Both the position numbers and the translations under genes were made by a program. This document shows positions 3,645 through 51,729 of a DNA stretch of 56,914 bases, one piece after another (within the stretch, counting starts at the first letter, position 1; each line of letters opens with the position of its first letter). The DNA is from an uncultured Gammaproteobacteria bacterium (GTDB taxonomy: Bacteria; Actinomycetota; Acidimicrobiia; Spongiisociales; SHLN01). The DNA lies in the NCBI GenBank assembly GCA_964195005.1, contig CAXMOO010000089.1:1-56914 (forward strand), read 5' to 3'. The notes under the pieces are model-generated. The model made no database searches and was not told where the DNA came from. It saw nothing but the letters and a program-made list of their open reading frames with translations.

Positions 3645-4148
3645 TCAGCTAGGGCGAGCCCGTCCGGCGGCGACTCGCCAATGGTGATCGGTGCCATCGG
3701 CTCTATCCATGGCGTCGACAGCGCGGGCCGACTCCTCGCTGGTCAGCTCGCTGACCAGGCAGAACTCGTTGCCGAACGGGTCGGTCATCACCGCCCGGTC
3801 GATTACGGGTGGTTTCCCCGAAAAGGAGCCGGGTCTTGGGTAAATACTCGGCTCCTTCTTGATCGAGCCTCCGATGGCGACAATCTGGTGGACGGCCTCG
3901 TCGACATCGTCAACGGTCAGATCGACATGGTTCCGGTTGGCCTTTGAGCCCTTAGGTCCTTTAACCAGCTGCAGGATCATCTCGTGCTTCCAGGGATCGA
4001 GCCGGCCGAGATATGAGAAGCGGCCGGTGTAGCCACTGGTGATGACCGGGAGTCCAGTGACCTCGGACCAGAAGGCCTCTGCTATCGCCAGGTCTTCGAC
4101 ATCAATGACATGGCAGCGAAGTGTTCCGATTCCCATTCTGTGAATCAC
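3645..4148 (-). CDS. VOC/glyoxalase-bleomycin resistance family protein
   Basis: 167 aa. ...LRCHVIDVEDLAIAEAFWSEVTGL...NHVDLTVDDVDEAVHQIVAIGGSI... matches the VOC beta-alpha-beta-beta-beta pattern. The start is either GTG at 4148 or ATG at 4136. Confidence 0.75.
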   Translation of the reverse strand: MIHRMGIGTLRCHVIDVEDLAIAEAFWSEVTGLPVITSGYTGRFSYLGRLDPWKHEMILQLVKGPKGSKANRNHVDLTVDDVDEAVHQIVAIGGSIKKEPSIYPRPGSFSGKPPVIDRAVMTDPFGNEFCLVSELTSEESARAVDAMDRADGTDHHWRVAAGRARPS

Positions 4149-19600: not shown

Positions 19601-19622
19601 TTCTTTCCCGGTTTCTCTGTCC

Positions 19623-19681
19623 TCCTGGGAGAGGACCGCTTGAGCGAAGCGAAGGCGAGGAGGGGTCTTGCTCCTCTCCCA
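19623..19681 (+). repeat. structured G/C-rich repeat (family 2), copy 1, 23 nt downstream of the recR stop
   Basis: The core tcctgggagaggaccgcttgagcgaagcgaaggcgaggagggg is 42/43 identical to the reverse complement of 51660..51702. The stem TGGGAGAGGA (19626-35) pairs with TCCTCTCCCA (19672-81). Confidence 0.75.
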
Positions 19682-19794
19682 CGGAGTGAAACGAAGTGGG
19701 GGAGGCTGGGCGGGGGTAGTTTCCAACAGCGGCGCCCTGAGTGAAGCGTTGGTGAGACCCGAGAGTTGCAGTAAGAGCGGGTCCGGCCGCGCAT

Positions 19795-20001
19795 CGAACC
19801 AGCAGTTGATTGTTGGGCACCGCCTTGTGCAAGGTCACCCGGAGGCAACAATTGTGGTGACGGCAAGCTGCCGGCATTCCTGCCGTTGGCGGGCACCACC
19901 CACCTTTGCTCGCCTTCCCCTCCCACTGCCTGCGAAGACTCCGCTAGGCAGGAGGGGATAAGCCGGCCAGACCAGCACCGAACCAGCAGTTGTTGTTGGG
20001 C
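19795..20001 (+). repeat. pair of direct repeats cgaaccagcagttg(a)ttgttgggc (19795..19818 and 19979..20001)
   Basis: The copies are 23 and 24 nt, differ by one indel, and lie 184 nt apart inside the recR/thiolase intergenic region. Confidence 0.6.
19917..19960 (+). repeat. structured G/C-rich repeat (family 3), copy 1
   Basis: cccctcccactgcctgcgaagactccgctaggcaggaggggata resembles 37141..37184 (ctcccactccgctccgaagactcccctccgcaggaggggat). It contains CCTGC/GCAGG and CCCCT/AGGGG pairings. Confidence 0.6.
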
Positions 20002-20019
20002 TGAGGGCGAAGGAGAAAG

Positions 20020-20056
20020 CTAGGGCGCAGGAACTCTCACGATCATCGCGTCGCCT
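20020..20056 (-). repeat. orphan duplicate of the last 37 bp of the thiolase gene, including its stop codon
   Basis: ctagggcgcaggaactctcacgatcatcgcgtcgcct is 37/37 identical to 20133..20169 (the codons for GDAMIVRVPAP*). Confidence 0.9.
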
Positions 20057-20132
20057 GCTTGTTGGCTCTTCGCCTGGTAGGTCATCGCAGTGTCGATGGG
20101 GCCCCAACCCCATCGACCGGCGACGCTCCGTC
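20057..20132 (+). mobile_element. 76-bp hairpin-containing insertion-like element (family 1), copy A
   Basis: The core ttggctcttcgcctggtaggtcatcgcagtgtcgatggggccccaaccccatcgaccggcg is homologous to 47510..47570. It has a 10-bp perfect stem, GTCGATGGGG (20092-101) with CCCCATCGAC (20108-117). It is flanked by 37-bp direct repeats. Confidence 0.55.
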
Positions 20133-21320
20133 CTAGGGCGCAGGAACTCTCACGATCATCGCGTCGCCTTGGCCGCCGCCGCCGCAGAGCGATGCTCCGC
20201 CGATGCCGCCGCCTTGATGGCGCAGCGCGTTGATCAACGTAACGATCAAGCGCGCTCCTGTCGCACCCAGCGGATGTCCGAGGGCAACCGCACCGCCGTT
20301 GACGTTTACCTTGTCATGCGGAAGATCGAGCATCTTGGCAGACCACAATGCCACCCCACTGAAGGCCTCGTTGATCTCCACCAGATCGAGGTCGGCGGGG
20401 GACAAGTCCGCCGTCTTGAGAGCCGTCTTCAGCGCCTCGGCGGGCCGTTCATGCAGGGTGGCGTCGACGCCGCCGATCTGCCCGTAGGAAAGAATCTCGG
20501 CCAGGACGGGTAATCCTTCAGCATCTGCGGCATCAGCGTCGGCCACCACAACCGCAGCTGCGCCGTCGGAAATCTGCGAGGCGTTGCCTGCCGTGATCGT
20601 GCCCTCAGCGCTGAAAGAGGCTTTGAGTGCGCCCAGGGTCTCAGCCGTGGAGTCGGGTCGGATGCCCTCGTCCCGGTCGACGGTCACCGGGTTACCTCGT
20701 CGCTGGGCCACTTCCACAGGGACGATCTCGTCAATAAAGGCGCCTTGGGAGGCCGACGCCGCTCGCTGATGGCTGGCGGCGGCCCACTCGTCCTGTTCGG
20801 ACCGGTCGATGCCGAGTCGGGCGCTATTCACATCGGACTGGGCCCCCATCGTGCACTGATCGAAGGAACAGAAAAGACCATCGTGTTCCAGCGCGTCGAT
20901 GATCCGGCCCTCGCCGTAGCCCATGCCGTATCGACCCTCGGGCAGAAGGTAGGGGGCTCCGGTCATTGACTCCATGCCGCCGGCGACGACAAACGTCGCT
21001 TCCCCCAGCCGGATGTCTTTGTCGGCCCAGCCGATGGCCGTCATCCCCGACAAGCACACTTTGTTGATGGTCGTGGCAGGCACCGTCAATGGGACTCCAG
21101 CCTTGGCGGCGGCCTGGCGGCTGGTGATTTGGCCGGTCCCGGCCTGGATGACGTGGCCAAACAGGACCTCGTCGATCTTCTCAGCTCTCAACCCGGCGCG
21201 TTCTAACGCGGCGCGGATGGCCACGGCTCCCAGGTCGACCGCCGATACGTTACGGAAGACGCCCCCGAACTTGCCAATCGGCGTGCGGGCAATGGAGGTA
21301 ATAACCGAGCTCATCGTCAA
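20133..21320 (-). CDS. acetyl-CoA C-acetyltransferase (thiolase II)
   Basis: 395 aa. ...INKVCLSGM... holds the active-site Cys. NVNGGAVALGHPLGATGARL and GGASLCGGGGQGDAM are the C-terminal thiolase signatures. Confidence 0.92.
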   Translation of the reverse strand: MTMSSVITSIARTPIGKFGGVFRNVSAVDLGAVAIRAALERAGLRAEKIDEVLFGHVIQAGTGQITSRQAAAKAGVPLTVPATTINKVCLSGMTAIGWADKDIRLGEATFVVAGGMESMTGAPYLLPEGRYGMGYGEGRIIDALEHDGLFCSFDQCTMGAQSDVNSARLGIDRSEQDEWAAASHQRAASASQGAFIDEIVPVEVAQRRGNPVTVDRDEGIRPDSTAETLGALKASFSAEGTITAGNASQISDGAAAVVVADADAADAEGLPVLAEILSYGQIGGVDATLHERPAEALKTALKTADLSPADLDLVEINEAFSGVALWSAKMLDLPHDKVNVNGGAVALGHPLGATGARLIVTLINALRHQGGGIGGASLCGGGGQGDAMIVRVPAP

Positions 21321-24277: not shown

Positions 24278-25147
24278 CTAGCCCACCGTTATTTCCACGC
24301 TCTCGATGTAGATAGATTGAAGCGGACGCGACACTTCCCCACCGTGGTTGGGGCCGAGAGGAATCGCCAGGATGTCGACAATGGCGGGCTGGGTCGGGTC
24401 GAAGCTGCCGAAAATGGTGAAGTCGGTGTTGAGCCCCGAATCCCCAACGGTGAGAAACATCTGACTCCCGTTGGTGTCGGGCCCGCTGTTGGCCATGGCG
24501 AGGACTCCGGCGATGTAGGACGTTCCGTCCGGGGGGAGCTCGTCGTCAAATCGATAGCCGGGGCCGCCGGTGCCGGTTCCGGTGGGATCACCCATTTGGA
24601 TGACGAATCCTGGCACCAGGCGATGGGCGGGAGTCCCGTCAAAGTAGCCCTGGCGGGCCAGGAACACGAAGCTATTTACAGCCTGCGGAGCCCGGCTCGG
24701 GTCCAGATCCAGAGTGATATCCCCACATGACGTCTTGATGATCGCCGTGACCACAGCATCAGAAGCCAGGCCCTGGTCTTCGGGCTCATCGAAGCTCAAT
24801 GTCGCCGGCGGGGGTGGTGCTGTTCCCCCGCAGGCCGTCTCTTGCGAAGCAAAGAGCTCGTAACTGGTGGCCGTCGGGACATCGTCAACGATTGAGATTG
24901 TGGTTGTGGTTTCGCCCCCCGCTGTCGTGGTCGACCCGGCTGTCGTGGTAGTCGTGGTCGTCGCGGCGTCAGGTTCGTCATCGCCCTCGCTCAGCAGCGA
25001 AAGGAGAAATGCTCCGCCGAAGACCACGACGACCACGATCACAACGTTGCGTGCCAGGCGCTTGCGTCGTTTCCACTGTGCCGCTTTGTGTTCTGCCGCC
25101 AGGCGAACTGCCCGGTTCTCCTTTTGTCTCTGCCGCTTTTCGCTCAT
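24278..25147 (-). CDS. membrane-anchored cyclophilin-type peptidyl-prolyl cis-trans isomerase
   Basis: 289 aa with an N-terminal TM segment and a Thr-rich linker (ATTTTTTTAGSTTTAGGETTTT). The cyclophilin core reads FHRLVPGFVIQMGDPTGTGTGGPGY.FDDE...GVLAMANSGPDTNGSQMF. Confidence 0.9.
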   Translation of the reverse strand: MSEKRQRQKENRAVRLAAEHKAAQWKRRKRLARNVVIVVVVVFGGAFLLSLLSEGDDEPDAATTTTTTTAGSTTTAGGETTTTISIVDDVPTATSYELFASQETACGGTAPPPPATLSFDEPEDQGLASDAVVTAIIKTSCGDITLDLDPSRAPQAVNSFVFLARQGYFDGTPAHRLVPGFVIQMGDPTGTGTGGPGYRFDDELPPDGTSYIAGVLAMANSGPDTNGSQMFLTVGDSGLNTDFTIFGSFDPTQPAIVDILAIPLGPNHGGEVSRPLQSIYIESVEITVG

Positions 25148-28638: not shown

Positions 28639-28712
28639 CGGGACGTGGCGCAGCTTGGCAGCGCGCAGCGTTCGGGACGCTGAGGTCGCGGGTTCAAATC
28701 CCGCCGTCCCGA
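28639..28712 (+). tRNA. tRNA-Pro (anticodon CGG)
   Basis: It folds by hand into a cloverleaf. The acceptor is CGGGACG/CGUCCCG (C1:G72). The D arm is GCGC-AGCUUGGCA-GCGC. The anticodon arm is CAGCG-UUCGGGA-CGCUG. The variable loop is AGGUC and the T arm is GCGGG-UUCAAAU-CCCGC. The discriminator is A73 and no CCA is encoded. Confidence 0.9.
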
Positions 28713-28768
28713 CCTCAAATCGGTTCACCTGATCTGCTGAGGGATTTGAACCCTCAAGAGAAAGCAGG

Positions 28769-28793
28769 TCAAATCCCGCCGTCCCGACCTCAA
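28769..28793 (+). repeat. direct repeat of the tRNA-Pro 3' end (att-like scar)
   Basis: tcaaatcccgccgtcccgacctcaa is 25/25 identical to 28694..28718 (T loop through 6 nt past the tRNA end). A T-arm-like palindrome, gagggatttgaaccctc (28739..28755), lies between the copies. Confidence 0.8.
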
Positions 28794-37140: not shown

Positions 37141-37213
37141 CTCCCACTCCGCTCCGAAGACTCCCCTCCGCAGGAGGGGATTTGCTGACTGCTGGCTGCG
37201 CTCCCACTCCGCC
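37141..37213 (+). repeat. structured G/C-rich repeat (family 3), copy 2, plus a partial internal repeat
   Basis: ctcccactccgctccgaagactcccctccgcaggaggggat is similar to 19920..19959. ctcccactccgc recurs at 37201..37212. gctcctctcccac is also shared with 19670..19682. Confidence 0.6.
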
Positions 37214-37998: not shown

Positions 37999-39158
37999 GA
38001 CGCTCTCTGGCCGTTGTCTTCGCAGTGAGTGTGCTTGGGCTCACCGTGGTCGCTCCGGCCGCGGCCAGTCTCGAAGACGACCTGCGCGAGGCCCGACTGG
38101 AGTTGCAGTCCGCCGTCACCGACCTGGAGGCGGCCACCTGGGATCACCGGATCGCGTCTGACACCGGGGGCCTGATGCAGTTCGAGCATGACGAACTGTT
38201 GGAGGATGCCGCCCTTCTCACTTTCGACTACGAGGCGAGTCGAGATACTGCCTTGGCCCGTTCCCTGGAGGTGTACCACGGGCCGGCCGGGACTACCTGG
38301 GCAGAGCGCTCAGTGGCTGGTGTCTATTTGGAGGCCGCCCTTGTCGCCGACCGTGAGACCCTTCTTGCCAAGGCCGGCAGCGTGCGGGTGATGGATGAGT
38401 ACCTCGAGCAGATGCAGGCGGAGATCGACGCGTACGAGGCGGCCGCGGTGGAGGCCGAGACCCGGATGACCGAGCTGGCCGAGGATTTGGAGAGGCTCGA
38501 GGTCGTTGTGGCCGAGATCTCCACGGCCTACGAGGCCGAAGCGGCGTACAACGCCACCACCACGACTACGACGACCACCACGACCACCACCGTTCCATCT
38601 ACGACCACCACCACTGTTCCATCTACCACGACCACGACGACCGTGGGAACCGGAACAACCACCACCACTGTGCCGGACACGGGGCCGACTACAACGACCA
38701 CGACGACCCCCACTACTACGACCACCACGACTCTGCCTCCGCCGGTGGTTCTCGATGGCATGACATGCCCGGTGGCAGGGCCGGTCCACTTCATCGACAG
38801 TTTCGGCGCTCCCCGGTCTGGAGGCCGCACCCATCAAGGAGTCGACATGATGGCGGATCGCGGCACACCACTTGTTGCCATCGAATCGGGAACGATCGGA
38901 CGTCTCAACAACGGCGGCCTGGGCGGCATCACCATCTGGTTCCATGGCGACGGAGGGGACCAGTACTACTACGCGCACCTGGATGATTGGTCGCCCGGTC
39001 TCGCTGCGGGCCAGCACGTCGACGTCGGCACTCTGGTCGGCTATGTCGGCAGCACCGGTAATGCCCCCGACGCCTACCCCCACAATCACTTCGAGATTCA
39101 TCCCGATGGGGGAGCGGCGATCAATCCCTACCCCACGGTCGCCGCCCTCTGCCTGTAG
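37995..39158 (+). CDS. secreted M23 family metallopeptidase with coiled-coil and poly-Thr linker
   Basis: The ATG at 37995 overlaps the upstream stop (ATGA). The signal peptide is MRRSLAVVFAVSVLGLTVVAPAAAS. The M23 motifs are HQGVDM...YAHL...GSTGNAPDAYPHNHFEI. Confidence 0.88.
   Translation: MRRSLAVVFAVSVLGLTVVAPAAASLEDDLREARLELQSAVTDLEAATWDHRIASDTGGLMQFEHDELLEDAALLTFDYEASRDTALARSLEVYHGPAGTTWAERSVAGVYLEAALVADRETLLAKAGSVRVMDEYLEQMQAEIDAYEAAAVEAETRMTELAEDLERLEVVVAEISTAYEAEAAYNATTTTTTTTTTTTVPSTTTTTVPSTTTTTTVGTGTTTTTVPDTGPTTTTTTTPTTTTTTTLPPPVVLDGMTCPVAGPVHFIDSFGAPRSGGRTHQGVDMMADRGTPLVAIESGTIGRLNNGGLGGITIWFHGDGGDQYYYAHLDDWSPGLAAGQHVDVGTLVGYVGSTGNAPDAYPHNHFEIHPDGGAAINPYPTVAALCL
38556..38732 (+). 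repeat. low-complexity Thr-codon tract (ACC/ACG/ACT) with internal repeats of accaccaccRttccatctac
   Basis: It encodes TTTTTTTTTTTTVPSTTTTTVPSTTTTTTVGTGTTTTTVPDTGPTTTTTTTPTTTTTTT. Confidence 0.85.
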
Positions 39159-47458: not shown

Positions 47459-47502
47459 TCTGAGCTCGATCAGATTCACATTCGGGACCTCACCGTCCAC
47501 GC
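47459..47502 (+). repeat. orphan duplicate of the folB 5' end
   Basis: tctgagctcgatcagattcacattcgggacctcaCcgtccacgc is 43/44 identical to 47592..47635. It is preceded by its own GTG at 47453. Confidence 0.9.
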
Positions 47503-47591
47503 TGTGTTTTTGGCTCTTCGGCTGACGCCTCATCGCTGTGTCGACGGGGCCCCAGCCCCATCGACTGGCGTGGTCGGGGGAGCTTCTGGTG
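47503..47591 (+). mobile_element. 89-bp hairpin-containing insertion-like element (family 1), copy B
   Basis: The core ttggctcttcggctgacgcctcatcgctgtgtcgacggggccccagccccatcgactggcg is homologous to 20062..20122. The stem pairs GTCGACGGGG (47540-49) with CCCCATCGAC (47556-65). The element is flanked by 44-bp direct repeats. Confidence 0.55.
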
Positions 47592-47969
47592 TCTGAGCTC
47601 GATCAGATTCACATTCGGGACCTCAGCGTCCACGCGATCATCGGGATCAATCCGTCTGAGCGGACCCAGCCGCAGGACGTTGTCGTCAACGCCACCCTCT
47701 TTGTCGACACCCGTCAGGCCGGAGTGAGCGACGAGATGCACGATTCTGTCAACTATTCGACCATCACCAAAGCCATGCATGCCCATATCGAGTCGGCGGC
47801 TCCTGGGTTGGTCGAACGCCTCGTCGCCGATTTGGCCCGCATTTGCTTCGAAACCGACCACCGGGTCAAAGAAGTTGAGATCACAGCGGAAAAACCGGGG
47901 GCGGTGACTTTCACCCGCTCCGTCGGGGTCACGATTCACCGCACGCGGGCCGAGGTGATGGAGCCATGA
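47589..47969 (+). CDS. folB: dihydroneopterin aldolase
   Basis: The GTG at 47589 is preceded by GGGGGAG. (M)[39 protein letters not shown]...DSVNYSTI follows the FolB pattern. The ORF track starts at 47538, inside the repeat element. Confidence 0.85.
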
Positions 47970-49066
47970 CCCGGGTCGTCGTCTCGGTCGGAAGCAATAT
48001 CGACAAGGAATCGAACCTTCCGGCTGCGATTGCTGCCCTCCAGCAGCATGACCACATCACATTGATTCAAACGAGCGACATCTTCGAATCACCGGCCATG
48101 GGGGGCGACTATCCACCGTTTCACAACGCTGCGGTCCTGCTCGAGACCGAGCTGGCGCCAGAAGAGCTGATCGCTTCCCTTAAATCCATCGAAAGCGCCC
48201 TCGGCCGAGTTCGAGAGGAAGACCCCAACGCTCCGAGAACTATCGACCTCGACATCATCTTGTACGACGACTTACACAACGCAGAACTGAAGATCCCCGA
48301 TCCTCACCTCGACGCGTATGCGTTCGTGGCGATCCCGGCAGCCCAGGTAGCAGGGGATTGGGAGATACCGGGCCGGAATAGAACAGTCGCTCAGATCGCT
48401 GAGTCAACGGCGGCAGGCGAACTACGAAAGGTAGACATGTCAGACAAAAAGGAGATCTCTCGGGACGAGGCCTTTGAGGAGTACGGACCGACGGATGAGT
48501 CGTTCAACCCTCGATATGAGGCTCTCGTTCGAGAGCAGCTCGAGATACTCGGGGAGGACCCGGAGCGGGATGGCATTAAGCGAACGCCCTTTCGCGTCGC
48601 CAAGTCGATGTCGTTTCTTACGAAGGGCTACACCCAGAGCCTCAAAGAAGTCATTAATAACGCCATTTTCGAGTCGCCGGACTCTGAAATGGTGATGCTG
48701 AAGGACGTCGAGTTCTATTCGATGTGCGAGCATCACATGCTTCCGTTCTTCGGGCGAGCTCACGTCGCTTACATTCCCGACGGCCGGGTGATTGGAGTCA
48801 GCAAGCTGGCCAGGATCGTTGACGTTTTCGCCAGACGGATGCAGATCCAGGAGCGGCTCTCGAATCAAGTTGCCGATGCTCTTATGGAGTGTCTTGATCC
48901 GCTCGGGGTGGGAGTGGTGATGGAAGCCGCCCATCTCTGCATGTTGATGCGGGGAGTGCAGAAGCAGAACAGCGAGATGGTCACCTCGGCATTGCGCGGC
49001 TCTTTCAAGTCAGATGCTCGCACCCGGAGTGAGTTCATGAATCTGGTAGGTCACGGACTGCGCTGA
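47966..49066 (+). CDS. folK/folE: bifunctional HPPK (FolK) and GTP cyclohydrolase I (FolE) fusion
   Basis: 366 aa. The N-terminal HPPK reads [10 protein letters not shown]...IFESPAMGG...[10 protein letters not shown]...GRVR...[13 protein letters not shown]...IPDPH. The C-terminal FolE reads [10 protein letters not shown]...[46 protein letters not shown]. The start overlaps the folB stop (ATGA). Confidence 0.88.
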
Positions 49067-51630: not shown

Positions 51631-51702
51631 GGGGGAGCAGCTCCCACCAATTACGGCTTCCCCTCCTCGCCTTCGCTTCGCTCAAGCGGTCCTCCCCCAG
51701 GA
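51631..51702 (-). repeat. structured G/C-rich repeat (family 2), copy 2, 28 nt downstream of the Nfu_N gene stop
   Basis: The reverse complement of 51660..51702 matches 19623..19665 at 42 of 43 positions. The stem pairs GGGGGAG (51631-37) with CTCCCCC (51692-98). Confidence 0.75.
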
Positions 51703-51729
51703 TGACAAAGAGGTCTCGGATGGAAGCTT

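Follow-up and report, generated by a model that had tools for sequence, protein, structure and literature searches.

How can a short non-coding insert come to lie between two copies of the same gene end and leave the gene undamaged? The question is raised by contig CAXMOO010000089.1 (assembly GCA_964195005.1), a 57-kb stretch of DNA (56,914 nucleotides) that we analyzed at its full length and refer to as the window. At positions 20020-20056 it contains a copy, identical over 37 bp, of the 3' end of a thiolase gene (20133-20169), and the two are separated by a 76-bp insert with a perfect 10-bp stem (GTCGATGGGG-CCCCAA-CCCCATCGAC, 20092-20117), as an earlier note made from the sequence alone had described. 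We call the hairpin-bearing insert E, the duplicated piece of the gene end t, and the copy that is detached from the gene body the distal t, so that the module is written t-E-t. The explanation that we prefer, and to which we give an even chance of being correct as a whole, is that a clade of uncultured Acidimicrobiia has a family of small, structured, interspersed repeats that had not been described before, and that E belongs to it. It would resemble mycobacterial interspersed repetitive units (MIRUs) and repetitive extragenic palindromic (REP) elements, with a repeated unit that includes the gene terminus at gene boundaries. The modules are old, are subject to concerted evolution and probably vary in unit number.

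A dispersed repeat family

E occurs twice in the window. The recurrence of its core beside the end of a different gene, also reported in the earlier note, is accurate: positions 20059-20122 match 47507-47570 with 83% identity over 64 nt, and the second copy is flanked by a 44-bp repeat, with one mismatch, of the 5' coding end of folB. A 28-nt degenerate pattern of the core matches the window only at these two sites (0.00 matches expected from 100 shuffles), and a nhmmer profile of E found no further copy there. Searching other genomes and metagenomes with the core, as had been suggested, yielded dispersed copies in contigs of Acidimicrobiia and none in reference genomes. A pattern scan identified E homologs in six further metagenomic contigs, L001, L002, L003, L006 (= L014), L008 and L012 (we use such numbers for contigs and assemblies other than the window), of which L001 has three tandem 86-bp E units. 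The gene contexts number at least five–thiolase, folB, a livM-like gene, pspA-like/infA, and DUF427/NfeD–and these homologous copies in unrelated surroundings bear out the earlier view that the arrangement is not a simple local accident but involves a small, dispersed, non-coding element. The names of metagenome-assembled genomes with close protein homologs place the host lineage among the uncultured Acidimicrobiia.

In 185,579 reference genomes we found no E: each of two pattern scans gave either no match or chance matches lacking the 3' arm of the hairpin. There were 0 matches in viral contigs, and a concatenated six-frame query made from E-encoded peptides retrieved no more copies with an E-value of 10 or below. 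Thirty open reading frames (ORFs) of the window, searched against Pfam, were all housekeeping genes; a transposase, integrase, reverse transcriptase or HUH nuclease was not among them, which agrees with the earlier remark that neither of the first two is encoded nearby. At the gathering threshold Rfam recognized only a tRNA-Pro in the window, and nothing relevant was found around E up to an E-value of 10. A hammerhead-like reading of GCGATGAG...CGAAGAGCC was rejected, as the core positions fail and no model matches.

Complementarity between E and the flanking gene end

Copies of E are about 75-90 bp long in total, with a conserved core of approximately 62 nt. Their plus-strand consensus reads (CGCC)-TGCTTGTT-GGCTCTTCG-(5-7 nt)-CTCATCGC-N-GT-GTCGATGGGG-CCCCNN-CCCCATCGAC-(C)GGCG..., in which L006 and L008 have an extra small hairpin in place of the 5-7 nt spacer. 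The order of the module on this strand is t, a conserved block (TGCTTGTT-GGCTCTTCG-...-CTCATCGC) that is single-stranded, the 10-bp G+C hairpin, a segment of 8-13 nt complementary to t, a short linker, and then t with the rest of the gene. The left end of E is well defined and the right end is variable, with a longer right tail, ...GGTC(A/G)GG..GCTTCTGGT, common to L003 and the folB copy. E also contains direct half-repeats 15 nt apart, GGCTCTTCG and (GG)CTCATCG. All substitutions in the hairpin are pair-breaking (C/A in the folB copy, T/T in L001, a base mismatch in L034), and there is no compensatory change.

In every copy that is flanked by repeats, the 8-13 nt directly 3' of the hairpin show complementarity to t at its inner end, which is the end abutting the left end of E. 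The complementary segment differs in sequence between the three junction classes, which are two in the thiolase gene (J1 and J2) and one in folB (Table 1), and the junction and the foot of the hairpin are the exact starting points of every alignment. Pairing scores are 7.5-8.5 with the cognate t, compared to 4-6.5 with those of the other classes, and the complementarity has shuffle P values of 0.008, 0.034 and 0.002 for the three classes when its position is not required. The repeat-free copies L001 and L008 have no such segment.

When the inner end of t is folded together with E, it forms a closing stem, P1, with the post-hairpin segment, and this stem encloses the hairpin, P2, as well as the conserved block. 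This P1 + P2 structure is both the minimum-free-energy and the centroid fold of the minus strand at both window copies (z = -4.0 and -3.8), and for the thiolase copy it forms on the plus strand too (z = -4.1); none of 200 shuffles was as stable as the thiolase E with its immediate flanks. We found no sigma-70-like consensus promoter at E, and neither strand of either window locus has an intrinsic terminator (a G+C stem-loop with a T/U run behind it), so a function of E as promoter or intrinsic terminator was rejected.

Rebuilt gene ends and a probably variable unit number

The flanking repeats differ in length from locus to locus: 37 bp at the window thiolase, 44 bp at folB, 39 bp in L003 and 59-66 bp in L006, and none in L001 and L008. 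The repeat of L006 takes in 19 nt of E's own right end, which indicates a former t-E-t-E array. Its two t copies differ at five positions, all of them synonymous third-codon positions, and both translate to GGGQGDALVVRVPPTT*; a diverged allele that replaced the functional copy would account for this difference better than a fresh duplication.

At the thiolase, J2 (L003, L006 and L002) lies 12 nt, or four codons, deeper in the gene than J1, and E supplies the stop codon in all three of these contigs. The duplication in L003 ends two codons before the native stop; the distal copy reads ...PGS* and the functional copy ...PEA*, its last thiolase codons and stop coming from E. In L002 the thiolase ORF continues into E for 15 codons and stops at the TGA of GCGATGA. 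At folB, E contributes a ribosome-binding site and start codon instead (GGGGGAG-N6-GTG). What appear to be the original ribosome-binding site and GTG (47453) precede the distal copy. A 53-codon ORF begins with this copy and passes through E, and its TGA overlaps the real folB start. The distal copy has ACC (Thr), as does the relative P0121, and the functional window copy has AGC. The alternative put forward in the earlier note, that the element integrates at gene termini while regenerating them, is thus confirmed in part only: the regenerated stop codons (L002, L003, L006) and the ribosome-binding site and GTG of folB are as it proposed.

A conserved small protein, reading from the ATG of GCGATGA into the distal copy, was considered as a driver of these arrangements. 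Its frame is kept in the window, L034, L003 and L002, and we rejected it because the frame is broken in L006 and the other copies are not independent.

At gene boundaries, what is repeated is the gene terminus together with E and not E alone, and the number of copies ranges from 1.3 to at least 2.3. One contig, L032, ends in t-E-t followed by 14 nt of another E, and L034 ends in t-E-t-E; L030, L031 and the window have t-E-t only, and L001 has its three units, all of these being short-read contigs. The contigs that end in t-E-t-E and the L001 array point to a variable unit number. A simple tandem duplication of E plus t, recognizable by an E remnant to the left of the distal t, was rejected, since the remnant signal in the window is not significant (matched in 908/2000 and 645/2000 shuffles).

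Age and concerted evolution of the modules

Comparison of the window with L034 shows 90% identity between the thiolases and the same J1 junction, at a divergence where only 52% of 4-fold degenerate sites are identical. E is identical at 64/78 positions between the two, and t at 31/37 between the genomes, yet the two t copies are identical within each genome, which implies concerted evolution. The thiolases of L003, L006 and L002 have 4-fold identities to the window of 38-42%. In a matrix of C-terminal thiolase identity, E-bearing lineages (L003, L006, L002, the window and L034) and E-free ones (L035, L036 and L037) are interleaved; E remnants downstream of thiolase in L035-L037 were suggested by eye, but the similarity is not significant and we count these lineages as E-free. 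In L044 (91%) and L045 (88%), only the first 12-15 nt of E remain beside the thiolase stop, and other repeats have been inserted there.

At folB, L038 (98%) has a perfect 44/44 repeat. The middle and right end of E are kept in L041-L043 (84%), where the hairpin and the greater part of the distal copy are gone, and L040 (87%) and L039 (85%) have the right half of E only; for the remnants in L040 and L041, 0/1000 shuffles matched as well. We looked for the empty sites that the earlier note expected in relatives and found none among six conspecific assemblies, all of which carry the modules and have private single-nucleotide polymorphisms (SNPs) in single repeat copies; more distantly, L035-L037 are without E. 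Junctions that are shared despite near-saturated synonymous sites, together with the decayed remnants in relatives of 84-91% protein identity, indicate that both window loci carry old modules, in which perfect repeats argue for homogenization and not for recent insertion. Judging from these alignments, E, and probably the whole t-E-t module, is older than these lineage splits, and has been eroded in some lineages and left nearly unchanged in others.

Across loci and lineages E has 76-96% sequence identity, compared to 38-58% at 4-fold sites of the host genes. Its sequence is under constraint, from either a host-level function or selection for continued mobility. The E copy at folB in the window is 91% identical to J2 thiolase copies of other lineages and 85% identical to the thiolase E of the window itself, so the two window copies are not homogenizing each other. 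In L008 there is an 11-mer, CCCTGCCCGCC, beside the left end of E; elsewhere in 272 kb of sequence from this lineage, it is found only at the thiolase GGGQG codons (twice in L006, and in L035), which are the J2 site. The L008 copy is probably derived from a thiolase-linked E plus a few bases of the distal gene copy.

Explanations for the modules

The preferred reading, of a MIRU/REP-like repeat, would work as follows. Once formed, a module would act as a minisatellite, in which slipped-strand events or unequal recombination between the t copies would expand, contract and homogenize it, and could delete it precisely. The first t-E-t at a locus would arise when E was copied and, in some cases along with a few donor-flank bases, pasted in at CGCC/GGCG microhomology, by a template switch during replication or repair or through a staggered break, and selection would have let only those events survive that regenerated the gene end. 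We favor this origin for the first duplication and the complementary segment, both of which we infer. E may be retained as a transcript boundary element, to judge by the stop codons that it supplies in one orientation and the ribosome-binding site and start codon in the other, and possibly also as a stable stem-loop beside a gene end, by analogy with REP and MIRU elements.

Several points weigh against this account. The sample of E is about ten copies from incomplete short-read contigs; slippage or unequal recombination was not directly observed, and the evidence for unit number comes from the ends of such contigs. By itself, the model leaves unexplained the first duplication and the target-complementary segment that accompanies it, as well as why the outer end of the repeat falls exactly at the stop codon or right after the start codon. 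The high conservation of E could reflect selection on a mobile element that is still active. Its decay in several lineages shows that E is dispensable, and its orientation, on the same strand as folB and opposite to thiolase, does not suit any simple single role at the RNA level.

The earlier note preferred a small non-autonomous element whose insertion duplicates 37-44 bp of its target; worked out as a model, E would be an active transposable element, moved by machinery encoded elsewhere that cuts with a stagger of 37-60 bp and so leaves long target-site duplications. The clean order of flank, t, E, t and gene at two unrelated window loci, the consistent left end of E (TGCTTGTTGGCTC / TGTGTTTTTGGCTC), the lack of an E remnant outside the distal copy, the dispersal to at least five contexts and the patchy presence of E among thiolase relatives are all in its favor, and the 11-mer of L008, at the same place by the left end, suggests that donor flank was carried along. 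We nevertheless think it rather unlikely, because L001 and L008 have no flanking repeats, the repeats range from 37 to 66 bp with that of L006 including 19 nt of E, the right end of E is not defined, E has no terminal inverted repeats of its own, and neither a transposase in the 57 kb nor an empty site in the six conspecific assemblies was found. Moreover, the junctions are orthologous across near-saturated divergence with the repeats still perfect, which makes their perfection uninformative on recency. That insertion in itself makes a target-site duplication of 37-44 bp is not borne out, in view of the repeat-free copies, the range of lengths and the age of the arrangement. A different kind of mobility, in which E chooses its target by base pairing and is perhaps an RNA-mediated element, like a short interspersed nuclear element (SINE), inserted by target-primed copying, appears to us quite improbable. 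It fits with the hairpin-adjacent segment that is complementary to the target at the exact junction, the fixed 3' end of the minus-strand transcript (...CGAAGAGCCAACAAGCAGG), with 11 nt of donor flank in L008, the variable or truncated other end, and the long repeats of variable length (0-66 bp); to our knowledge such features are typical of target-primed retrotransposition and not of known bacterial DNA transposons. Among other repeat-generating systems, we set aside a diversity-generating retroelement (there are no adenine-specific differences), a CRISPR-like array (the "spacers" are identical), and duplication of an integrase att site or island at a gene end (only 76-89 bp lie between the repeats, and the window has no integrase).

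If the module is instead a cis-regulatory RNA device, the post-hairpin segment would pair with either of the two identical inner ends of t (1:2 or 2:3, as in an attenuator) and would couple translation of the gene end, or of an upstream mini-ORF, to the 3'-end structure of the thiolase mRNA or to access to the folB start. We regard this joint claim as unlikely. Pairing is kept while the complementary segment varies over three junction classes, and the change from J2 (after the GGG codons) to J1 (12 nt nearer the stop) takes two substitutions, both restoring pairing; the P1 + P2 fold at both window copies, the overlap of the mini-ORF TGA with the GTG of folB, an ATGA overlap in E', and the conservation of E well above neutral sites are also consistent with it. 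Such a switch, however, needs only 8-13 nt of a repeat of 37-66 nt, E is sense to folB and antisense to thiolase, the changes in the hairpin only break pairs, L006 does not keep the mini-ORF frame, decay of the module is seen in L039-L041, L044 and L045, and E showed no promoter or canonical terminator. Finally, a repeat collapsed or falsely expanded by the assembler, which the ends of L032, L033 and L034 inside the repeat might suggest, has practically no probability and is ruled out by independent assemblies. The thiolase t-E-t is present in four of these (L030-L033) and that of folB in one (L038), with unique flanks assembled in L030, L031, L038 and the window; the assemblies come from different samples and have private SNPs in one repeat copy (one each in the conspecific L030 and L031, in the distal t only), and diverged versions exist in other lineages.

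Coordinates and other repeats

The features of the two modules are listed in Table 1. E copy 2 is located between a short-chain dehydrogenase (SDR) gene and folB in an operon-like row of genes. The gene ahead of folB is of the SDR-type reductase kind, and after folB there is a single frame of 366 aa (47966-49066) that, from its translation, apparently combines a FolK-like N-terminal part with a GTP cyclohydrolase I-like C-terminal part.

Table 1. Features of the E modules, their junction classes and gene contexts (window positions unless a contig is named)
Feature	Position or contig	Strand	Remarks
Thiolase gene	20133-21314	minus	ORF; Pfam Thiolase_N/Thiolase_C
Distal t, thiolase (last 37 nt including stop codon)	20020-20056	minus	identical to 20133-20169; detached from gene body
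P1, left strand	20048-20055		GCGTCGCC, inner 8 nt of distal t
E copy 1, 76 bp	20057-20132	plus	nhmmer E-value 4e-20
E copy 1, left end	20057-20063		GCTTGTT
E copy 1, block	20064-20072		GGCTCTTCG
E copy 1, TCATCGC	20082-20088		
E copy 1, hairpin P2	20092-20101 + 20108-20117		GTCGATGGGG/CCCCATCGAC, loop CCCCAA
E copy 1, complementary segment	20119-20126		GGCGACGC, complementary to inner end of t, 8/8, starting exactly at junction
E copy 1, linker	20127-20132		TCCGTC
Proximal t, thiolase	20133-20169	minus	functional 3' end (GDAMIVRVPAP; stop at 20133-20135)
Distal (upstream) t, folB	47459-47502	plus	first 44 coding nt of folB
E copy 2, 89 bp	47503-47591	plus	nhmmer E-value 3.5e-19
E copy 2, block	47512-47520		GGCTCTTCG
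E copy 2, TCATCGC	47530-47536		
E copy 2, hairpin	47540-47565		one C/A mismatch
E copy 2, complementary segment	47568-47577		GCGTGGTCGG, complementary to inner end of t CCGTCCACGC, 9/10
E copy 2, ribosome-binding site	47576-47582		GGGGGAG
E copy 2, start codon supplied to folB	47589-47591		GTG
Proximal t, folB	47592-47635	plus	functional folB 5' coding end
folB (PF02152)	47589-47969	plus	true start GTG at 47589; relatives begin M[A/S]ELD...
Junction J1	window, L034		GCGTCGCC / GGCGACGC, 8/8
Junction folB	window		CCGTCCACGC / GCGTGGTCGG, 9/10
Junction J2	L003		...GACCGCCGCC / GGCGTCGGTCA, 10/11
Junction J2	L002		complementarity 9/10
Junction J2	L006		complementarity 11/13
Context: thiolase 3' end	window, L034, L002, L003, L006		
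Context: folB 5' end	window, L038		
Context: livM-like gene	L012		E 11 nt beyond stop
Context: pspA-like/infA	L008		E between pspA-like gene start and infA
Context: DUF427/NfeD	L001		E in divergent intergenic region
Conserved intergenic element, ~150 nt	L035 3760-3900; L036 3760-3900; L037 4030-4180; L003 1205-1350		

Other repeats of the window have a related layout. The last 25 nt of the tRNA-Pro(CGG) gene with its flank (28694-28718) are repeated perfectly at 28769-28793 (region 28639-28793), and the two copies are separated by a 50-nt insert (28719-28768), in which GGGATTTGAACCC (28741-28753) is exactly the reverse complement of the T-arm (28690-28702). As in the E modules, a gene end is present as a direct copy and its inner end as a short inverted copy; the insert resembles E in its ...AAGCAGG end and is otherwise unrelated to it. 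A direct repeat of approximately 30 nt, with one mismatch and one indel (19791-19820 and 19975-20003), surrounds an insert of approximately 155 nt; within the insert, 19930-19959 resembles 37152-37181 and represents a further dispersed repeat. Small inserts enclosed by long direct repeats may be typical of this genome as a whole.

A second dispersed family, which we call F, has GAGCGAAGCGAAGG between a C-rich and a G-rich arm and occurs at 19601-19690 and 51660-51711; one copy is just past the stop codon of recR, and an inverted copy, 94% identical, is past the end of another gene. In L039, L040 and L044, homologs of F are found beside folB and thiolase (for L039 and L040, 0/500 shuffles). Several relatives have, near thiolase and recR, a conserved intergenic element of approximately 150 nt, AAAGGAGGGCCGGCTGTGAGGA...GAGGAGGCGTTGAGGCTGAGGAA..., that is missing from the window (Table 1) and has no Rfam match. 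Directly after the thiolase stop, without E, L035 has three 20-nt tandem units (CAACTCGAAGAGTTGGCCAC, 3686-3745) and L037 has 78-nt tandem units (3720-3960); the intergenic site behind thiolase is a repeat hotspot across the clade. Imperfect tandem repeats rich in ACC/ACG, encoding a Thr/Pro-rich linker, are present in an M23-peptidase gene of the window (38545-38737), with similar sequences at 875-939 and 24917-24967.

Significance and comparison with known systems

What is known of small interspersed repeats comes mainly from the enterobacterial REP and ERIC, neisserial Correia and mycobacterial MIRU elements of a few cultured groups. The E family comes from an uncultured marine or sediment actinobacterial class, and its unit takes in a stretch of the gene beside it and a segment complementary to that stretch, so that coding sequence has become part of a minisatellite while the gene is undamaged. 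If the complementary segment is functional or templated, these modules would offer a system for studying how short repeats regenerate gene ends and how tandem gene-end copies evolve in concert, and a test of target choice guided by base pairing. In practical terms, E loci break short-read assemblies, and could serve for strain typing in the way that the variable-number tandem repeats of MIRUs (MIRU-VNTRs) do.

REP elements act on mRNA stability and translation near stop codons. E shares with the REP, BIME (bacterial interspersed mosaic element) and REPIN (REP doublet) sequences of Proteobacteria a short, extragenic, G+C-rich hairpin at gene ends or between cistrons, without coding capacity, and differs from them in having one hairpin plus a conserved unpaired block of 35-50 nt and in bringing gene-end duplications. 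REPs and REPINs have palindromic units of 21-65 bp, usually in inverted pairs, and a gene for a REP-associated HUH transposase (RAYT); we saw no inverted pairs of E at any locus, and no HUH-type protein in the window. Long and variable direct repeats, of tens to hundreds of bp, are made by insertion sequences of the IS1634/IS1549 type, but these are full-length elements with a transposase and terminal inverted repeats, neither of which is associated with E in the data at hand. The analogy to integron attC sites consists of a core repeat on both sides of the unit, an internal, imperfectly palindromic site, and an outer stem that pairs the inverse core with the downstream core. However, the E units are approximately 113-138 bp and hold a gene tail only, and no integrase was found in the window; core sites RYYYAAC/GTTRRRY are absent from E, as the nearest sequence, GTTGGCT at the left end, fails the consensus and has no inverse partner, and we set this system aside.

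Bacterial MITEs (miniature transposable elements with inverted repeats), for example Correia, ERIC and RUP, are small, dispersed, non-coding stem-loops, flanked by direct repeats, that may supply expression signals (PMC3184786). E is likewise small (76-89 bp), non-coding, multi-copy and dispersed, in at least five gene contexts. It has no terminal inverted repeats of its own, its sole long-range inverted repeat being formed with the flanking gene copy, different in sequence at each locus and absent from the repeat-free L001 and L008, and in place of a short target duplication of fixed length it has flanks of 0, 0, 37, 39, 44 and 59-66 bp. The 57-kb window holds no parent insertion sequence with matching ends and a transposase.

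MIRUs are interspersed repeats of 40-100 bp in an actinobacterial lineage, intergenic within operons, with G+C-rich internal inverted repeats, small ORFs, ends that overlap adjacent genes, and a variable tandem number (PMC3184786). E agrees with this description as an intergenic unit in the size range of 40-100 bp (76-89 bp) in operon-like surroundings, whose ends overlap ORFs: it is found where genes begin or end, contributes start and stop codons or overlaps them, and occurs as tandem units in L001, L032 and L034. The two differ in that MIRUs are flanked by tetranucleotide repeats, whereas E units carry 37-66 nt of the neighboring gene and a complementary segment, and in that the host of E belongs to Acidimicrobiia and not to Mycobacterium; E is thus at most an analog, compared by description only. 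By this analogy, E looks closest in kind to mycobacterial MIRUs and REP-type elements, and closer to these than to a classical transposon.

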